A DNA stretch of 8,464 bases from a virus (IMGVR_UViG_2667527591_000013); one strand, 5' to 3'. Positions 1,758 to 8,464 are shown, counted from the stretch's first letter. The notes: generated by a model not told the origin, from the letters alone. Made by a program: numbers and translations.

Positions 1758-2501
1758 ATGACAGAGACAGAATCAGCGATTCTGGCGCATGCCCGGCGGT
1801 GTGCGCCTGCGGAGTCGTGCGGCTTCGTGATAAGCACGCCGGAGGGGGAGCGGTATATCCCTTGTGTGAATATTTCCGCAGAGCCGGAGGCGTATTTTCG
1901 TATCGCACCGGAAGACTGGCTGCGGGCAGAGATGCAGGGGGAGATTGTGGCACTGGTCCACAGTCATCCCGGTGGACTGCCCTGGCTGAGCGAGGCCGAC
2001 CGGCGGCTGCAGATAAAAAGCGCACTGCCCTGGTGGCTGGTCAGCCGGGGTGACATTCACAAATTCCGCTGCGTTCCGCACCTGACGGGACGGCGCTTTG
2101 CGCACGGGGTGACGGACTGTTACACGCTGTTCCGGGATGCATACCATCTGGCAGGCATTGATATGCCGGATTTTCATCGCGGGGATGACTGGTGGTGCAA
2201 CGGTCAGAACCTTTACCTGGACAATATGGAGGCAACGGGCTTTTACCGGGTGCCCCTGTCCTCTGCACTGCCGGGCGATATCCTGCTGTGCTGCTTCGGC
2301 GCATCGGTGGCTAATCATGCCGCCATTTACTGCGGCAACGGTGAGCTGCTTCACCATCTGCCTGAACAGCTGAGTAAACGGGAGAGGTATTCCGAAAAAT
2401 GGCAACGACGAACGCATTCTGTCTGGCGTCACCGCCACTGGCACGCATCTGCCTTCACGGGGATTTACAACGATTTGGCCGCCGCCTCAGCCTGTATGTG
2501 A
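1758..2501 (+). CDS. K: Tail tip assembly protein K (JAMM/MPN plus NlpC/P60 domains)
   Basis: 247-aa ORF starting 5 nt after the L stop. It contains the JAMM motif HSHPGGLPWLSEAD (H-x-H-x7-S-x2-D) and an NlpC/P60-like Cys (GVTDCYTLF) with a downstream His (NHAAIY). It matches lambda K from memory (EIVALVHSHPGGLPWLSEADRRLQ, HKFRCVPHLTGRRF). The true start may be internal. It overlaps I by 103 nt in another frame, as lambda K and I overlap. Confidence 0.9.
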   Translation: MTETESAILAHARRCAPAESCGFVISTPEGERYIPCVNISAEPEAYFRIAPEDWLRAEMQGEIVALVHSHPGGLPWLSEADRRLQIKSALPWWLVSRGDIHKFRCVPHLTGRRFAHGVTDCYTLFRDAYHLAGIDMPDFHRGDDWWCNGQNLYLDNMEATGFYRVPLSSALPGDILLCCFGASVANHAAIYCGNGELLHHLPEQLSKRERYSEKWQRRTHSVWRHRHWHASAFTGIYNDLAAASACM

Positions 2502-3079
2502 ACACGGCAGCGGAAGCCATCCGCGCACTGTCGATGCAGGTGCCGGGCTTTCGCCGTCAGATGAACGAAGGCTGGTACCAGATACGCATTGCCGGTGAGG
2601 ATACGGCACCGGAGGCGGTGTATGCCCGCCTTCACGAACCACTGAGTGAGGGAACGGTTATCCATATTGTGCCGCGACTGGCCGGGGCCGGAAAGGGAGG
2701 ACTGCAGATTGTGCTGGGGGCGGCAGCCATCGTGGGCTCTTTCCTCACTGCCGGTGCCTCGATGGCGTTATGGGGTACAGCCCTGAGTGCCGGCGGTTTT
2801 TCTGCCACCACGATGCTGTTTTCACTGGGGGCCAGCATGATTCTGGGTGGTGTGGCCCAGATGCTGGCCCCGAAGGCAAAAACACCGGATTACCGCGCAA
2901 CGGATAACGGCAGACAGAACACGTATTTTTCGTCACTGGACAACATGATTGCCCAGGGTAACCCGATGCCGGTGCCTTACGGGGAAATGCTGGTTGGCTC
3001 CCGCCGTATATCCCAGGACATCAGTACCCGTGATGAAGGCGGGTGCGGAAAGGTCGTGGTTATCGGGCGGCAGGGGTAA
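2399..3079 (+). CDS. I: Tail tip assembly protein I
   Basis: 226-aa ORF. Motifs ARICLHGDLQRFGRR, GWYQIRIAG, VIHIVPRLAGAGKGG, FSLGASMILGGVAQMLAPKAKTP and NTYFSSLDNMIAQGN parallel lambda I as recalled. The hydrophobic Gly/Ala-rich central segment is typical of this protein. Confidence 0.9.
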   Translation: MATTNAFCLASPPLARICLHGDLQRFGRRLSLYVNTAAEAIRALSMQVPGFRRQMNEGWYQIRIAGEDTAPEAVYARLHEPLSEGTVIHIVPRLAGAGKGGLQIVLGAAAIVGSFLTAGASMALWGTALSAGGFSATTMLFSLGASMILGGVAQMLAPKAKTPDYRATDNGRQNTYFSSLDNMIAQGNPMPVPYGEMLVGSRRISQDISTRDEGGCGKVVVIGRQG

Positions 3080-3085
3080 AAAGAA

Positions 3086-3180
3086 TAAAAAAATCCCGCA
3101 GTGATCGCGGAGCTGCGGGGACAGACAAAGATTAGAGTTAAGGAGTTGTTTTTGTTACTCGGGCAAAAAAACACTAACGC
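3086..3180 (-). ncRNA. Candidate small RNA (about 95 nt), antisense, in the I-J intergenic insert
   Basis: It lies between the candidate promoter and the minus-strand terminator. There is no start codon with an SD on the minus strand in this interval. The predicted RNA contains a second internal hairpin (GTTTTT...AAAAAC) and a CUCCUU stretch. Ends are approximate. Confidence 0.3.
3095..3119 (-). terminator. Intrinsic terminator, minus-strand oriented, immediately after the I stop codon
   Basis: Perfect 7-bp stem CCCGCAG(3095-3101)/CTGCGGG(3113-3119) with an 11-nt loop. On the minus strand the stem is followed by ATTTTTTTATTCTTT (complement of + 3080-3094). On the + strand the downstream sequence is not T-rich. 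Confidence 0.6.
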
Positions 3181-3186
3181 AGCGAA

Positions 3187-3214
3187 ATTATACGCGCCAC
3201 AGTCAGTTTGTGAA
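3187..3214 (-). promoter_or_regulatory. Candidate sigma70 promoter on minus strand (-35 TTCACA, 16-bp spacer, -10 TATAAT)
   Basis: The minus strand reads TTCACA (complement of + 3209-3214), a 16-nt spacer, then consensus TATAAT (complement of + 3187-3192). It points leftward toward the terminator at 3095-3119. Confidence 0.4.
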
Positions 3215-3286
3215 AATGTGAAGATATTCAGAATTTTTATGCCATTACCGGTTTTTACCAACAGGATTATCGGTGGACATGAAAGA

Positions 3287-3322
3287 AAACCCCGGTATCT
3301 GCTGATACCGGGGTTTCTCTTT
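3287..3322. terminator. Bidirectional hairpin terminator in the I-J intergenic insert
   Basis: Perfect 12-bp inverted repeat AAACCCCGGTAT(3287-3298)/ATACCGGGGTTT(3305-3316) with a 6-nt loop CTGCTG. The + strand continues TTTCTCTTT; the minus strand continues TTTTCTTTC. Confidence 0.6.
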
Positions 3323-3419
3323 AGCATGGCAGAAATGTGTTTCATGCTTTTCGGGCGAAGGATATCCGACTTCTGTACGGAATGGCAAGTGGCGGTTAAT
3401 TTATTCAGGGGAAGGCTGT

Positions 3420-6400
3420 ATGGGAAAAGGTGGCGGTAAGGCACACACGCCTCGTGAGGCGAAGGATAATCTCAAATCCACGCAGATGATGAGCGTGATT
3501 GATGCGGTTGGTGAGGGACCGATAGAAGGCCCGGTGAAGGGACTGCAGAGTATCCTGGTGAACAAAACCCCGCTGACGGACACGGACGGTAATCCCGTGA
3601 TACACGGTGTGACGGCGGTCTGGCGCGCCGGGGAGCAGGAGCAGACACCACCGGAAGGCTTTGAGTCCTCCGGAGCTGAAACTGTACTGGGCGTGGAAGT
3701 GACGAAGGCAAAACCGGTGACGCGCACCATTACGTCCGCGAACATTGACCGCCTGCGGGTTACCTTCGGGGTGCAGTCACTGGTGCAGACCACGTCAAAG
3801 GGTGACCGAAACCCGACATCCGTCCGCCTGCTGATTCAGTTACAGCGTAACGGTAACTGGGTGACAGAAAAGGATGTCACCATTAACGGCAAGACCACCT
3901 CGCAGTTTCTGGCGTCGGTGATTCTGGATAATCTGCCTCCCCGTCCTTTTAACATCCGGATGGTCCGGGAGACGGCGGACAGCACCACGGACCAGTTGCA
4001 GAACAGAACACTCTGGTCATCGTACACCGAAATCATCGATGTGAAACAGTGCTACCCGAACACGGCGATTGTGGGGCTGCAGGTGGATGCGGAGCAGTTC
4101 GGTGGTCAGCAGATGACGGTGAACTACCATATCCGCGGTCGCATCATCCAGGTGCCGTCAAACTATGACCCGGAAAAACGCACCTACAGCGGTATCTGGG
4201 ACGGCAGTCTGAAACCGGCATACAGCAACAACCCGGCCTGGTGCCTGTGGGACATGCTGACTCACCCGCGCTACGGGATGGGAAAACGCCTGGGGGCGGC
4301 GGATGTGGACAAGTGGGCGCTGTATGCCATCGGGCAGTACTGCGACCAGACGGTCCCGGATGGTTTCGGGGGCACAGAGCCGCGGATGACCTTTAATGCG
4401 TACCTGGCACAACAGCGTAAGGCGTGGGACGTTCTCAGTGATTTCTGCTCGGCGATGCGCTGTATGCCGGTATGGAACGGCCAGACGCTGACGTTCGTTC
4501 AGGACCGCCAGTCGGATGTGGTGTGGCCGTACACGAACAGCGATGTGGTGGTGGATGATAACGGCGTGGGGTTCCGCTACAGCTTCAGTGCCCTGAAGGA
4601 CCGGCACACGGCGGTGGAGGTGAATTACACCGACCCGCAGAACGGCTGGCAGACCTCCACGGAACTGGTGGAAGACCCGGAAGCCATACTGCGCTACGGA
4701 CGCAACCTGCTGAAGATGGATGCGTTCGGCTGCACCAGTCGCGGTCAGGCCCACCGTGCCGGGCTGTGGGTGATAAAGACAGAACTGCTGGAAACGCAGA
4801 CGGTGGATTTCACACTCGGGTCACAGGGGCTGCGGCACACACCGGGTGACATTATTGAAATCTGTGATAACGACTATGCCGGGACTATGACCGGCGGACG
4901 TATCCTGTCCATTGATGCTGCCACCCGCACCCTGACGCTGGACCGTGAGGTTACCCTGCCGGAGACAGGTACATCGGCGGTGAACCTGATTAACGGCAGC
5001 GGTAAGCCGGTGAGTGTGGACATCACCGCACACCCCGCGCCGGACCGGATACAGGTCAGTACCCTGCCTGATGGTGTGGAGACATACGGTGTGTGGGGAC
5101 TCTCCCTGCCGTCACTGCGCCGTCGCCTGTTCCGCTGTGTCTCCATCCGGGAAAACACGGACGGCACCTTTGCCATCACGGCGGTGCAGCACGTACCGGA
5201 AAAAGAAGCCATTGTGGATAACGGAGCCCGCTTTGAGCCGCAGTCAGGCACCCTGAACAGCGTTATCCCACCGGCAGTACAGCACCTCACGGTGGAGGTG
5301 AGCGCAGCTGACAGCCAGTATCTGGCGCTGGCGAAATGGGACACGCCGAGGGTGGTGAAGGGCGTGCGCTTCAGTCTGCGCCTGACCAGTGGAAGCGATG
5401 AGAACAGCCGCCTGCTGACCACCGCCATCACTGCCGATACGGAGCACCGTTTCAGTGGCCTGCCTCTCGGGGAATACACCCTGACGGTCAGGGCGATAAA
5501 CAGCTACGGCCAGCAGGGCGAACCCGCCACCACCACGTTCCGGATTAACGCACCGGCAGCGCCTGCCGGTGTTGAACTGACGCCGGGGTATTTTCAGATA
5601 ACGGCAGTCCCGAAACTGACCATTTATGACCCGACGGTGCAGTTTGAGTTCTGGTTTTCGGAGGCAAAAATTGCAGACGCCGCACAGGTGGAAACCTCTG
5701 CCCGTTATCTGGGGACCGGCAGTCAGTGGAGTGTCTCCGGTCCGCACATTAAGCCCGGAAAGGATTTCTGGTTTTATGTGCGCAGCGTCAACCTGGTGGG
5801 TAAATCTGCTTTTGTGGAAGCCAGTGGACGGGCGAGCAATGATGCTGCGGGCTATCTGGAACTTTTCCGGGAAAAGATAGGAAAAACGCATCTGGCAGAG
5901 GCGCTGTGGGCAGAGATTGACAACAGTCAGCTGAAGGACGAGATGGCGGAAATGCAGACCACCATCACAGAAACCCGCAATGAAATCACACAGACGGTCA
6001 GTAAAACGCTGGAGGACCAGAGCGCCACCATACAGCAGATACAGCGCGTGCAGAAGGACACAAATGATGACCTTGCTGCACTTTACATGCTGAAGGTACA
6101 GAAAACAAAAAATGGCATACCCTATGTTGCCGGTATTGGAGCGGGGATTGAGGATACTGATGGCCAGCCCCTGAGCAACATACTGCTGCTGGCTGACCGT
6201 ATTGCGATGATTAACCCGGAGGACGGCAACACCACGCCGTTATTTGTGGCGCAGGGGAATCAGTTGTTCATGAACGATGTGTTCCTGAAGCGGCTGTTTG
6301 CGGTGAGTATCACCTCGTCCGGCAATCCCCCTACGTTCTCCCTGACGCCGGAAGGCAGGCTGACGGCCCGTAATGCGGATATCAGCGGACATATCAGTGC

Positions 6401-6950
6401 GAACTCGGGCACGCTGAATAATGTCGTGATAGCGGAGAACTGTACCATCAAAGGTACTCTGAGAGCGGAAAATATCATTGGCGATGTGGTGAAAACGCAC
6501 AATGTCAGTCTTCCTGATCTCAGGGCTGCAGGGGAGCACAGACACGCGACAGAACGAACGGTTACTGTCATTGATGATCAGTCGTTTGACCGGAATATTG
6601 TTATCCCGCCGGTTTTTTATTCCGGTATTATCTACAAAGGAAGTGATGGTGACGGTGCGACCTCAATCTGTACGCTGACGGTGAGTGTGAATGATCGGGT
6701 GGTGTTCAGCAAAACCTCATCCATCGGTACCAGGCGTACGTCAGGGGGATACCCCGTTCAGGAAGACACCATATATCCCGGGTCATCCACTCCGTTCAGC
6801 TATTTCATGAGGATGGCGTCAGGGGGAGGTGATGTCAGGATCAAGTTCCGGATTGAGGTCATCTATTATGGAACTGCACCGGGTTTTATGACCACAGGGA
6901 TACAGATCACAACGATGAAGGCGTCAGCTTCAGGATTTGTGGAAAGTTAA
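3420..6950 (+). CDS. J: Central tail fiber / host specificity protein J (tail tip attachment protein)
   Basis: 1176-aa ORF with GGAAGG SD 6-7 nt upstream of the ATG. It is colinear with lambda J (1132 aa) through the N-terminal and central regions ([22 protein letters not shown]..., [76 protein letters not shown]...NADISG...[14 protein letters not shown]). The last 150 or so residues (from about nt 6496) diverge from lambda's LamB-binding C-terminus. Confidence 0.95.
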
Positions 6951-7271
6951 TCCCGGACGATCGTGATTGCCGGAAGGAGACAAAAACCGCACAGTATGCG
7001 CGGGTGCCTTTGGCTGATGGCCGGAGGGAACACCTGAAAGCCTGATGTGAAAAGGCCCCGAGTCAACTTCAATGTTAACCCGAGGCCCTGATCCGTCTAT
7101 CTTAAGCAAGTGGCAGGTTAGCGCCTCTCCGTAATAAGGAGCAAGTGCTGTGTCGCAAAAACCACCGTGATTTGTATCACTGTAGTGCTCATTATCTGGA
7201 TCACCCACCGTTCACTGTGTGAATTCCGGTTCCGGATAGCACCTTTTTAATCCTGTAAACCACGATTTTTA

Positions 7272-7306
7272 CCGCAGACCGGGAAACCGGCACTGCGGTT
7301 TTTTTT
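7272..7306 (+). terminator. Rho-independent terminator ending 14 nt upstream of the stf-like start codon
   Basis: Stem CCGCAG(7272-7277)/CTGCGG(7293-7298) enclosing an inner CCGG-GAAA-CCGG hairpin, followed by eight T's (7299-7306). Confidence 0.7.
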
Positions 7307-7319
7307 ATGGGGAAAATCT

Positions 7320-8464
7320 ATGACAGTCAGAATATCGGGCGTGCTGAAGGACGGCACCGGGAAGCCGGTACCGGGATGCACCATTGAACTGAAAGCCCTG
7401 CGCACCACGGAGACAGTGATTGTCACCACGGTGGCGCAGGGGCAGCCGGGGGAAACCGGCAGTTACAGTTTTGATGTGGAGCCGGGGTGGTACCGGGTGA
7501 CGCTGAACACGGAAGGGTACGCCCCGTCGTATGTGGGTGACATTCTGGTGAAGGCGGATTCTGAGCCGGGAACGCTGAATAAATTTCTGATGGAACAGGA
7601 TGAGGCGCAGTATTACCCGAAAGCGCTTGCAGAGCTGGAAGCGGTGGCAGCGGAAATCCTGAAGCGTGCTGAAGCGTCGGCGGCGAGTGCAGAGGAAGCG
7701 AAGAAACGGGCAGAGAATGCCCGGGGACCGGCGGGCGAGAAGGGGGACACAGGTCCACAGGGTGCCACAGGGGCAAAGGGACCAGCCGGGGCAACGGGGG
7801 CGGTCGGACCAAAAGGTGAGCCGGGGCCAAAGGGAGAACGGGGAGAAACAGGTCCACAGGGACCGAAGGGCGATAAAGGTGACCCGGGCGGACCGCCGGG
7901 GCCGAAAGGTGACACCGGCCCACGTGGAGAGGCCGGACCACCCGGACCACAGGGTCCGGCAGGGCAAACCGGCCCGAAAGGGGATAAAGGTGAACCCGGC
8001 GCAACAGGTCCGGCAGGTCCCGCAGGCCCTCGGGGAGAAACCGGCCCCGCAGGTCCTGCGGGTCCCGCAGGCAGTGTCGCCAGTGTTCCGGATGCCAGCA
8101 CATCACAGAAAGGTGTTGTACAGCTGAGCAGCGATACCAACAGCGATGATGAAACAAAAGCGGCAACCCCAAAGGCTGTGAAAGCGGTAATGGCAGAAGT
8201 GCAGGCAGCAAAAACGAAGGCAGAAGAGGCAGCAACCCGGGCAGCAGTCCCCGGACCGAAGGGGGACAGGGGGGAACCTGGCGCACCTGGTGCAGTGGGG
8301 CCAGCAGGCCCACGGGGACCGGCTGGTGCAGCTGGTCCCAAAGGTGATGCAGGCCCGGCAGGCCCCGCAGGAAAGGATGGTACCGCCGGAGCGGAAGGTA
8401 AGGCAGGTCCGGCAGGGCCACGAGGTGAAAGGGGACCAGCGGGGGCACAGGGTGTTCCGGGGCC
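7320..8464 (+). CDS. Side tail fiber protein (Stf-like) with collagen-like Gly-X-Y repeats; 5' partial, runs off the window end
   Basis: ATG at 7320 with GGGGA SD 6 nt upstream. The open frame reaches the window end without a stop, so it is absent from the supplied ORF track. The N-terminus [26 protein letters not shown] parallels lambda Stf ([17 protein letters not shown]...). The conserved motif [30 protein letters not shown] is present, flanked by two Gly-X-Y blocks. Confidence 0.85.
7725..8072 (+). repeat. Collagen-like Gly-X-Y triplet repeat block 1 within the stf-like gene
   Basis: About 37 consecutive G-X-Y triplets ([19 protein letters not shown]...[10 protein letters not shown]) with a single one-residue interruption at [10 protein letters not shown]. 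The DNA shows a 9-bp periodicity of GGN-CCN-NNN. Confidence 0.85.
8253..8464 (+). repeat. Collagen-like Gly-X-Y triplet repeat block 2 within the stf-like gene (continues past window end)
   Basis: [70 protein letters not shown], uninterrupted to the window end. Confidence 0.85.

Follow-up and report, generated by a model that had tools for sequence, protein, structure and literature searches.

An allele of the Hfq-dependent small RNA gene pasB between tail genes I and J of a lambda-like Escherichia coli prophage

Results

The I–J spacer and its neighbours

The window, by which we mean the whole stretch of 8,464 nucleotides that was analysed (IMGVR_UViG_2667527591_000013), covers the tail region of a lambda-like E. 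coli prophage, as seen from Pfam matches to its ORFs. Our subject is the 340-bp spacer between the tail genes I and J (window 3080–3419), which has the following neighbours:

1758–2501, plus strand: tail gene K (Pfam JAB and NlpC/P60 domains)
2399–3079, plus strand: tail assembly gene I, the upstream neighbour, with its stop codon at 3077–3079 (ORF list; Pfam PF06805 Lambda_tail_I, E = 2.8e-16)
3420–6950, plus strand: tail tip/host-specificity gene J, the downstream neighbour (ORF list; several GpJ domains in Pfam, namely Ig_J, FNIII-A_GpJ, Phage-tail_3 and Phage_Tail_Tip)

In phage lambda, 60 bp separate the end of I (15444) from the start of J (15505), which confirms the contrast with near-adjacent lambda genes that had drawn attention to this spacer in the original prediction, a reading made from the sequence alone. 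The spacer is also AT-richer than the flanking tail genes, as had been claimed: its GC content is 43.2%, against 60.1% in I and 56.9% in J. It is, in other words, extra DNA of deviating composition between conserved late genes, as a moron would be. A consensus scan of positions 2900–3600 found three promoter-like and three terminator-like sites, where shuffled sequence leads one to expect about 0.8 of each, and the density is thus about four times that of shuffled sequence for both kinds of site alike.

Two further observations concern the outer parts of the window. On the plus strand, 715–1752 holds an ORF of 345 aa in which a phage lysozyme domain (aa 33–147) is fused in frame to tail protein L (aa 146–343). 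Both parts are nearly complete, the junction lies near 1145–1150, a DUF1327 gene of the lysis region stands upstream of the fusion, and the best genome matches to the window all start at about 1145. The fusion looks like the product of a deletion that joined lysis gene R to tail gene L; having lost terminase, head and most tail genes in this way, the prophage would be defective, though the RNA gene described below is intact, and retention of that gene could therefore be passive. Towards the other end, positions ~7135–8464 (plus strand) have a GC content of 0.66–0.70 and a strong AT skew. Genome matches annotate a gene for a prophage tail-fibre N-terminal domain there, and no plus-strand ORF is listed in this part because that gene would overrun the end of the window. 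In the closest genomic context there is apparently no lom between J and the tail-fibre gene, unlike in E. coli E2348/69.

A minus-strand transcription unit in the left half of the spacer

The half of the spacer next to I carries a compact transcription unit that reads against the tail genes:

3087–3180, minus strand: pasB transcription unit (PasB probe match and alignment to the E2348/69 pasB locus)
3215–3240, minus strand: conserved AT-rich block upstream of the −35 element (AAAAATTCTGAATATC...), near-invariant in all three body types
3187–3214, minus strand: pasB sigma-70 promoter, with −35 TTCACA (3214–3209), a 16-nt spacer and −10 TATAAT (3192–3187) (consensus scan, 11/12)
3145–3156, minus strand: candidate Hfq distal-face site AACAAAAACAAC, four consecutive A-R-N triplets (read from the sequence)
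3121–3144, minus strand: putative seed region UCCUUAACUCUAAUCUUUGUCUGU, predicted to be single-stranded and differing between alleles
3087–3119, minus strand: pasB intrinsic terminator, with stem 3119–3113/3101–3095, an 11-nt loop, an A and U7 (3093–3087) (scan, folding, alignment)

The near-consensus minus-strand promoter that had been predicted is indeed present, as TTCACA-16-TATAAT with 11 of 12 consensus matches. This promoter block is kept in 15 diverged variants of body types 1 and 2 (see below), where the −10 element reads TATAAT, AATAAT or GATAAT. In type 3, the type of strain Sakai, the −35 element and the spacer differ, and the consensus scan calls no promoter in that spacer. The AT-rich block upstream is possibly an UP element or a regulator site, a suggestion that comes from its sequence conservation.

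The terminator was foreseen exactly. Its consensus in the alignment is a 7-bp stem joining 3119–3113 to 3101–3095, within the predicted 3095–3119, and all seven pairs are invariant in 12 variants, so that these 12 show no covariation in the stem; the scan alone places the terminator at 3111–3095, followed by ATTTTTTTAT. [quoted passage not shown] The 5′ end can be placed in two ways. The promoter predicts a start near G3180, while the published PasB 5′ end, taken from RNA-seq coverage, aligns to window 3165, 15 nt further downstream, and this gap would reflect either processing or imprecise mapping. A minus-strand transcript of about 95 nt had been predicted; strand and unit hold, and the length becomes about 94 nt with the start at 3180 or 79 nt for the window allele with the 5′ end placed at 3165 by homology.

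Upstream of the 3′ stem, folding leaves the RNA essentially unpaired, and the fold of the whole RNA is not unusually stable (z of −1.1 to −1.5). The unpaired part includes AACAAAAACAAC, whose A-R-N triplets, in the definition of Tree et al. (2014, PMC4104026), make it a candidate for Hfq binding; types 2 and 3 keep three such triplets at the same place.

In some phage records, short hypothetical proteins are annotated in the spacer. A protein-coding reading of it was excluded: the 15 spacer variants share no ORF, indels of 1–5 nt occur in the body, and the spacer ORFs have no Pfam match. The lack of plausible coding capacity noted in the original prediction is thereby borne out.

Identity with PasB

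The I–J insert is an allele of pasB, an already known prophage gene for an Hfq-dependent sRNA. The name PasB stands for pathogenicity-associated sRNA B. Using RIL-seq, Pearl Mizrahi et al. (2021, PMC8550237) described five prophage sRNAs in the EPEC O127:H6 strain E2348/69, and their Table S6 places PasB on the minus strand of NC_011601.1 at 1466343–1466261 (83 nt), in prophage PP6 between E2348C_1436 and E2348C_1437, with the Northern probe AATCCCGCAGTGATCGCGGAGCT. This probe matches the window once, at 3092–3114 of the plus strand and with no mismatch (200 shuffles gave no match); since the match is on the plus strand, the RNA it detects is the minus-strand transcript.

The surroundings agree as well. 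In E2348/69 the tail assembly gene ends at 1466255 and gpJ starts at 1466496, and the two loci can be aligned from the upstream AT-rich block through the RNA to the stop codon of I. The 154-nt module of the window is 93% identical to NC_011601.1 1466261–1466418; over the RNA, the window allele is identical to E2348/69 PasB at 90 of 98 positions (92%) and to the common allele at 91 of 98 (93%). The same arrangement, between I and J on the opposite strand, is found in E2348/69 and 13 other loci; phages with a PasB gene include PhiR12_2 and PPompW. The window locus shares with the PasB family homology that includes the probe site, the I–J position on the opposite strand, a promoter of its own, an intrinsic terminator with a U tract, and a non-coding body. 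A search of Rfam, suggested as a check when the locus was first described, yielded nothing above threshold, whether for the window, for E2348/69 pasB or for the Sakai Sp15 locus, PasB being without an Rfam model.

Expression and Hfq dependence of homologues

In E2348/69, PasB was seen by Northern blot, RNA-seq and RIL-seq as an RNA of 83 nt from the strand opposite to I and J; its stability is Hfq-dependent, and its level is higher under the non-activating condition (PMC8550237). Mean counts in the lysogen are 482 and 1082 for pasB and about 5 and about 15 for the flanking I and J, so that pasB is read at a level 30- to 200-fold above its flanking genes, and its log2 changes are −6.8 and −2.4 when the table is read as hfq mutant versus wild type (PMC8550237). 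Such low counts for I and J indicate that E2348/69 PasB is made independently of late transcription, which bears out, for this homologue, the expectation that the RNA would be insulated from late transcription in a lysogen.

PasB ranks 15th by number of RIL-seq interactions (37), with partners that comprise bfpB, bfpI, ler, perB, ftsZ, galE, rplX, fabR, yhhX, tolC, raiA and espC (PMC8550237). It is the second RNA in ~99–100% of its chimeric fragments (PMC8550237), and in every pair considered here, a position typical of sRNAs. Expression, size and Hfq dependence were demonstrated for homologues and would, by homology, hold for the window allele too. The general reading with which we began, a non-coding minus-strand RNA with its own promoter and terminator, is in this way supported by published experiments on the homologous locus.

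A putative seed and its allelic variation

Four strong partners of E2348/69 PasB were compared with the RNA, the partner regions being set by the chimeric reads. In three of the four, a run of 9 nt or more is perfectly complementary to unpaired PasB sequence, and three were reached in none of 3000 shuffles. Two partners, ler and fabR-yijD, match one and the same stretch, PasB nt 22–32 (UCCUUCACAUU), with perfect complements of 9 and 11 nt, and the segment matched by both is UCCUUCACA(UU). The ler complement, UGUGAAGGA, lies inside the 3′ part of ler; that of fabR-yijD, AAUGUGAAGGA, spans the Shine-Dalgarno sequence of yijD and stops 6 nt short of the ATG. For yhhX there is a 9-nt match of AAAACAACU.

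A seed containing CUCCUU had been foreseen, and it gains support from the two strong RIL-seq partners that are complementary to UCCUUCACAUU. In the sections covered here, a 2026 survey (10.64898/2026.05.13.724894) proposes the single-stranded region before the terminator as the seed, and the computed matches of ler and fabR-yijD support this proposal.

The yhhX match is kept in the common and window alleles. C27, on the other hand, sits in the middle of the stretch that would pair with ler and yijD and is peculiar to the allele of E2348/69; neither match survives in the common allele (A27) or in that of the window. Natural alleles, that of the window included, are therefore likely to differ in their targets, as far as computed complementarity can tell.

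Body types, alleles and distribution

We aligned fifteen I–J spacers, some from E. coli genomes and some from phages. The three body types all have the upstream AT-rich block, and types 1 and 2 also share the −35/−10 promoter and an invariant run of the first six transcribed bases. Across the aligned spacers a U run, the A-R-N-rich stretch, the terminator and the U tail are kept and the bases between them differ, apart from the islands UCC(U/A)UA and AAUCUUC, which most variants retain, the first being altered in two type-2-like alleles. The picture is that of a cassette in which at least three body/seed types, with a mutual identity of 72–76%, stand behind one common terminator.

Of 5,426 complete E. 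coli genomes, 962 carry type 1 (PasB proper), 800 type 2 and 542 type 3 (EcOnc22-like), the last often in several copies. Zhu, Shabalina and Storz (2026, bioRxiv 10.64898/2026.05.13.724894) give, in the sections covered here, ~1,158 PasB hits with differences of a few nucleotides. Both the number and the narrow variation fit type 1 alone, which suggests that their blastn search fell short of types 2 and 3. The three body/seed types across 5,426 genomes thus extend the published survey, whose count is near that of type 1 by itself.

The window allele belongs to type 1 and carries three substitutions and a 4-nt deletion in the putative seed, just 5′ of the terminator. It is rare, with at least 99% identity in only 46 of 1,654 matching records, and it is found in several unrelated strains; its carriers include G1/2 (NZ_CP060083.1) and UPEC-245U (NZ_CP049845.1).

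A scan of species-representative genomes with the promoter block returned 42 matches, nearly all due to chance; the only true copies found beyond E. coli were those in E. albertii and in two short contigs. These contigs, NZ_JBHTEB010000006.1 (3408 bp, assigned to Streptomyces flavalbus) and NZ_FWPT01000051.1 (460 bp, assigned to Parendozoicomonas haliclonae), each hold an E. coli-type I–J spacer with a PasB-like gene, and contamination of those assemblies is almost certain in both cases.

EcOnc22, EcOnc23 and EcOnc24 of O157:H7 Sakai

Tree et al. (2014, PMC4104026, Table S2) listed EcOnc22, EcOnc23 and EcOnc24 as homologous orphan Hfq-binding sites in the Sakai prophages Sp15, Sp14 and Sp11. 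EcOnc22 gave a Northern band of ~85 nt that was destabilised in an hfq mutant, and the Northern probe for the three was GGGAGAGAACGATGAAGATTAACTGATGAGTTA (PMC4104026). Each of the three is placed in the gap that separates the tail assembly gene from the host-specificity gene, and reads from the strand opposite to them. The Sp15 copy was located with the probe:

NC_002695.2 2902691–2902930: Sp15 I–J spacer (EcOnc22 probe mapping)

Within this spacer GGGAGAGAACGATGAAGATTAACTGATGAGTTA maps to 2902862–2902896, inside an RNA that has the PasB terminator and the conserved seed islands, and EcOnc22–24 therefore belong to the PasB family. Judged by sequence and position, PasB and EcOnc22–24 are one family housed in the same I–J cassette.

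We found no paper that links EcOnc22/23/24 to PasB. In Table S6 of PMC8550237, EHEC homologues are noted for PasA and PasD and the note field of PasB is empty, and the sections of the 2026 survey covered here make no mention of EcOnc22/23/24. Seeing PasB (EPEC, 2021) and EcOnc22/23/24 (EHEC, 2014) as one cassette extends the published picture.

The coordinates in Table S2 of PMC4104026 are offset from NC_002695.2 by about +135 to +142, as measured between the AsxR peak and the Rfam match of AsxR, and for this reason do not transfer as they stand to NC_002695.2; PasA (EcOnc51) and STnc100 (EcOnc04), tried as further calibration points, gave an ambiguous answer. Read directly, the EcOnc22–24 peaks would point to a second sRNA at the J-side hairpin, a candidate that we rejected because of the offset and because the Northern probe lies inside the PasB-like RNA. 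A separate observation concerns the PasA homologue of Sakai Sp12 (NC_002695.2 2237451–2237535, 2237662–2237683), whose second terminator-like repeat coincides exactly with the esterase stop, in agreement with the 236-nt minor PasA isoform of E2348/69; EcOnc51 would mark one or the other of the two sites according to the coordinate offset.

The hairpin before J and the right half of the spacer

Two features lie between the pasB promoter and J:

3287–3316, no strand assigned: hairpin with a 13-bp stem, a 4-nt loop and T-rich tracts on both sides (scan, 3317–3286; folding)
3318–3419, plus strand: leader of J as found in the long spacer type; it contains a second, small hairpin (AGCATG...CATGCT) and the ribosome-binding site of J (sequence, folding)

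A bidirectional hairpin with a 12-bp stem had been described at 3287–3316 as the second terminator of the insert. The hairpin and its T-rich tracts are there, with a stem of 13 bp; it is probably a terminator of the late strand and not a boundary of the sRNA unit. Its position upstream of the pasB promoter means that it is no part of the sRNA.

The late-strand assignment draws on the short spacers of about 240 bp, of which we compared L001, L003, L006, L007, L009–L014 and L017, the last being that of Sakai Sp15. These have a different hairpin at the same place, followed by UUGUUUUU on the late strand only. One of its pairs runs C-G/U·G/U-A on the late strand, and the middle state would be a C·A mismatch on the PasB strand. 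This series of pairs, together with the U tract confined to the late strand, argues for a terminator acting in late-strand RNA, inside the late operon just before J. The hairpin at 3287–3316 is most likely an intrinsic terminator of the same kind, for the late (plus) strand just upstream of J. Such a terminator would block stray, non-antiterminated transcription in a lysogen, and Q-modified polymerase would override it. Given the U-rich tracts on both of its sides, 3287–3316 could also stop minus-strand transcription coming out of J.

The 179-bp right half of the spacer (3241–3419) is 95–99% identical in 1,446 genomes and always accompanies pasB; in phage records it has no distant relatives beyond 13 near-identical copies. 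On the minus strand of the long spacer, the segment 3278–3354 forms two hairpins (z = −6.8 versus shuffles) and ends in GGGGUUUUCUUUC, and a weak promoter-like site, TTGCCA-18-TATCCT (3388–3359), lies upstream of it. By its sequence, this 77-nt segment may represent a further small transcript, arranged in tandem with pasB, or else just the reverse face of the late-strand terminator.

Discussion

A real small-RNA gene was correctly foreseen here from promoter, terminator and base composition alone. In our reading, window 3087–3240 (minus strand) is very probably a pasB allele that works as an independently transcribed moron gene between I and J, with a product that is stabilised by Hfq and pairs in trans with mRNAs. 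Host RNA polymerase would start at the strong sigma-70 promoter and stop at the 7-bp hairpin followed by U7, releasing an RNA of ~80–95 nt. A long unpaired 5′ part followed by a 3′ hairpin-plus-U tail is the expected layout of an Hfq-binding sRNA, and Hfq would stabilise the RNA. The unpaired region (window 3144–3121, UCCUU...) would then pair with host and virulence mRNAs, often at or near their ribosome-binding sites, and would alter their translation or stability. By RIL-seq, PasB interacts with mRNAs of virulence regulators (ler, perB, bfp). As the seed varies and the terminator (in types 1 and 2 also the promoter) is fixed, the versions of this RNA that different prophages supply probably have different targets.

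The locus had been put forward as a candidate antisense sRNA. The sRNA part of this proposal stands and the classical antisense part does not: an RNA running from 3180 or 3165 to 3087 overlaps no gene, since I ends at 3079 and J starts at 3420, and covers neither a gene nor a translation start on the opposite strand, which points to action in trans.

It is conceivable, though unlikely, that PasB from a resident prophage, even a defective one, and the co-conserved late-strand terminator form a two-part device that limits expression of the host-range protein J of an induced or superinfecting lambdoid phage with the same body type, PasB being perfectly complementary to the I–J junction in the late mRNA of such a phage; if this were true, the three body types would behave like specificity groups, besides retargeting host mRNAs. 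That a role in cis is what PasB is mainly for seems to us quite unlikely. PasB is perfectly complementary to the intercistronic I–J part of the late mRNA and its promoter is head-on to late transcription, and through RNA duplex formation or transcriptional interference it might cut or attenuate late transcripts before J, in the resident or in a superinfecting related phage, with the trans partners being secondary. In each of the three body types the gene occupies one fixed place in the late operon and runs against it, as such a role would lead one to expect. The same can be said of the late-strand terminator just before J, which always accompanies pasB, and of the terminator (the promoter too, in types 1 and 2) being more conserved than the body, as expected if transcription or self-complementarity is what matters. 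However, the RNA is plentiful in lysogens that hardly express I and J, it depends on Hfq, and it forms reproducible chimeras with many unlinked mRNAs that bear seed complements; moreover, the body keeps the islands UCCUUA and AAUCUUC across types, and pasB is retained in a defective prophage unable to make tails. A cis role could be an added function; as the main function it fits poorly with the Hfq-dependent level in the lysogen and with the trans partners.

We also considered a sponge or anti-sRNA like AgvB or AsxR, in which the A/C-rich AACAAAAACAAC would pose as an mRNA target and thereby tie up a core sRNA, for example GcvB. It is true that AACAAAAACAAC resembles CACAACA, the CA-rich GcvB target consensus quoted for AgvB, that its A-R-N repeat is of a type bound by the distal face of Hfq, and that one RIL-seq partner region adjoins the sRNA gene pasA. 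Nevertheless, the conserved ~42-nt 3′ region of RF02702/RF02703 gives no match in the window at the gathering score or at E up to 10, although the same library detects AsxR in the Sakai control locus. AgvB and AsxR sit 3′ of PR′ in a moron site, convergent with an STnc100-like sRNA, and the window locus lies between I and J without STnc100; the window RNA measures 79–98 nt against 51–60 nt. The listed PasB partners are nearly all mRNAs, and the sRNA–sRNA block of the activating-condition RIL-seq sheet, the part considered here, has no gcvB–pasB pair. An AgvB-like anti-GcvB RNA was rejected on the absence of an Rfam match, the different position and the missing pair in that block, and we hold the sponge reading to be very improbable.

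Hardly credible, finally, is the view that the window allele is a decaying, non-functional copy whose deletion and substitutions are damage in a defective prophage: the allele is rare, the lysozyme–L fusion implies loss of the head and most tail genes, and the changes abolish complementarity to two E2348/69 partners, but no damage is seen in the promoter (11/12), A-R-N stretch, terminator or U7 tail, the allele occurs in several unrelated strains, and seed variation is normal for the PasB family.

Our preferred reading, a trans-acting pasB allele, can be set beside the systems already described. The closest is PasB of EPEC E2348/69, with which the window shares the I–J position, the opposite strand, the promoter, the terminator, the U7 tail and an exact probe match. 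The window allele differs in having A for C at position 27, two more substitutions and the 4-nt deletion 5′ of the terminator, and the spacer to the right of the promoter is a different and longer module, for a total of 340 bp against 240 bp. EcOnc22/23/24 likewise resemble the window locus in I–J position, orientation, terminator and the UCC(U/A)UA and AAUCUUC islands; they are ~73% identical over the RNA and differ in the 5′ part, in details of the seed and in the −35 region.

AgvB and AsxR are, like PasB, short, prophage-borne and Hfq-binding, with an A-R-N motif and a fixed 3′ part joined to a variable targeting part. They differ in being placed next to STnc100 and not in the tail operon, in their shorter length, and in giving no match by sequence or covariance model.

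Classical lambdoid morons have their own promoter and terminator, lie between conserved late genes and are expressed in the lysogen. The promoter–cargo–terminator layout with an RNA as cargo, which was part of the original prediction, is supported here, the homologue being expressed in the E2348/69 lysogen. With these morons the pasB unit shares its status as an insert relative to lambda, its lower GC content, its own promoter and terminator and, for the homologue, lysogen expression; it differs from them in that their cargo is protein and its own is an RNA, and in that the pasB unit points against the late operon.
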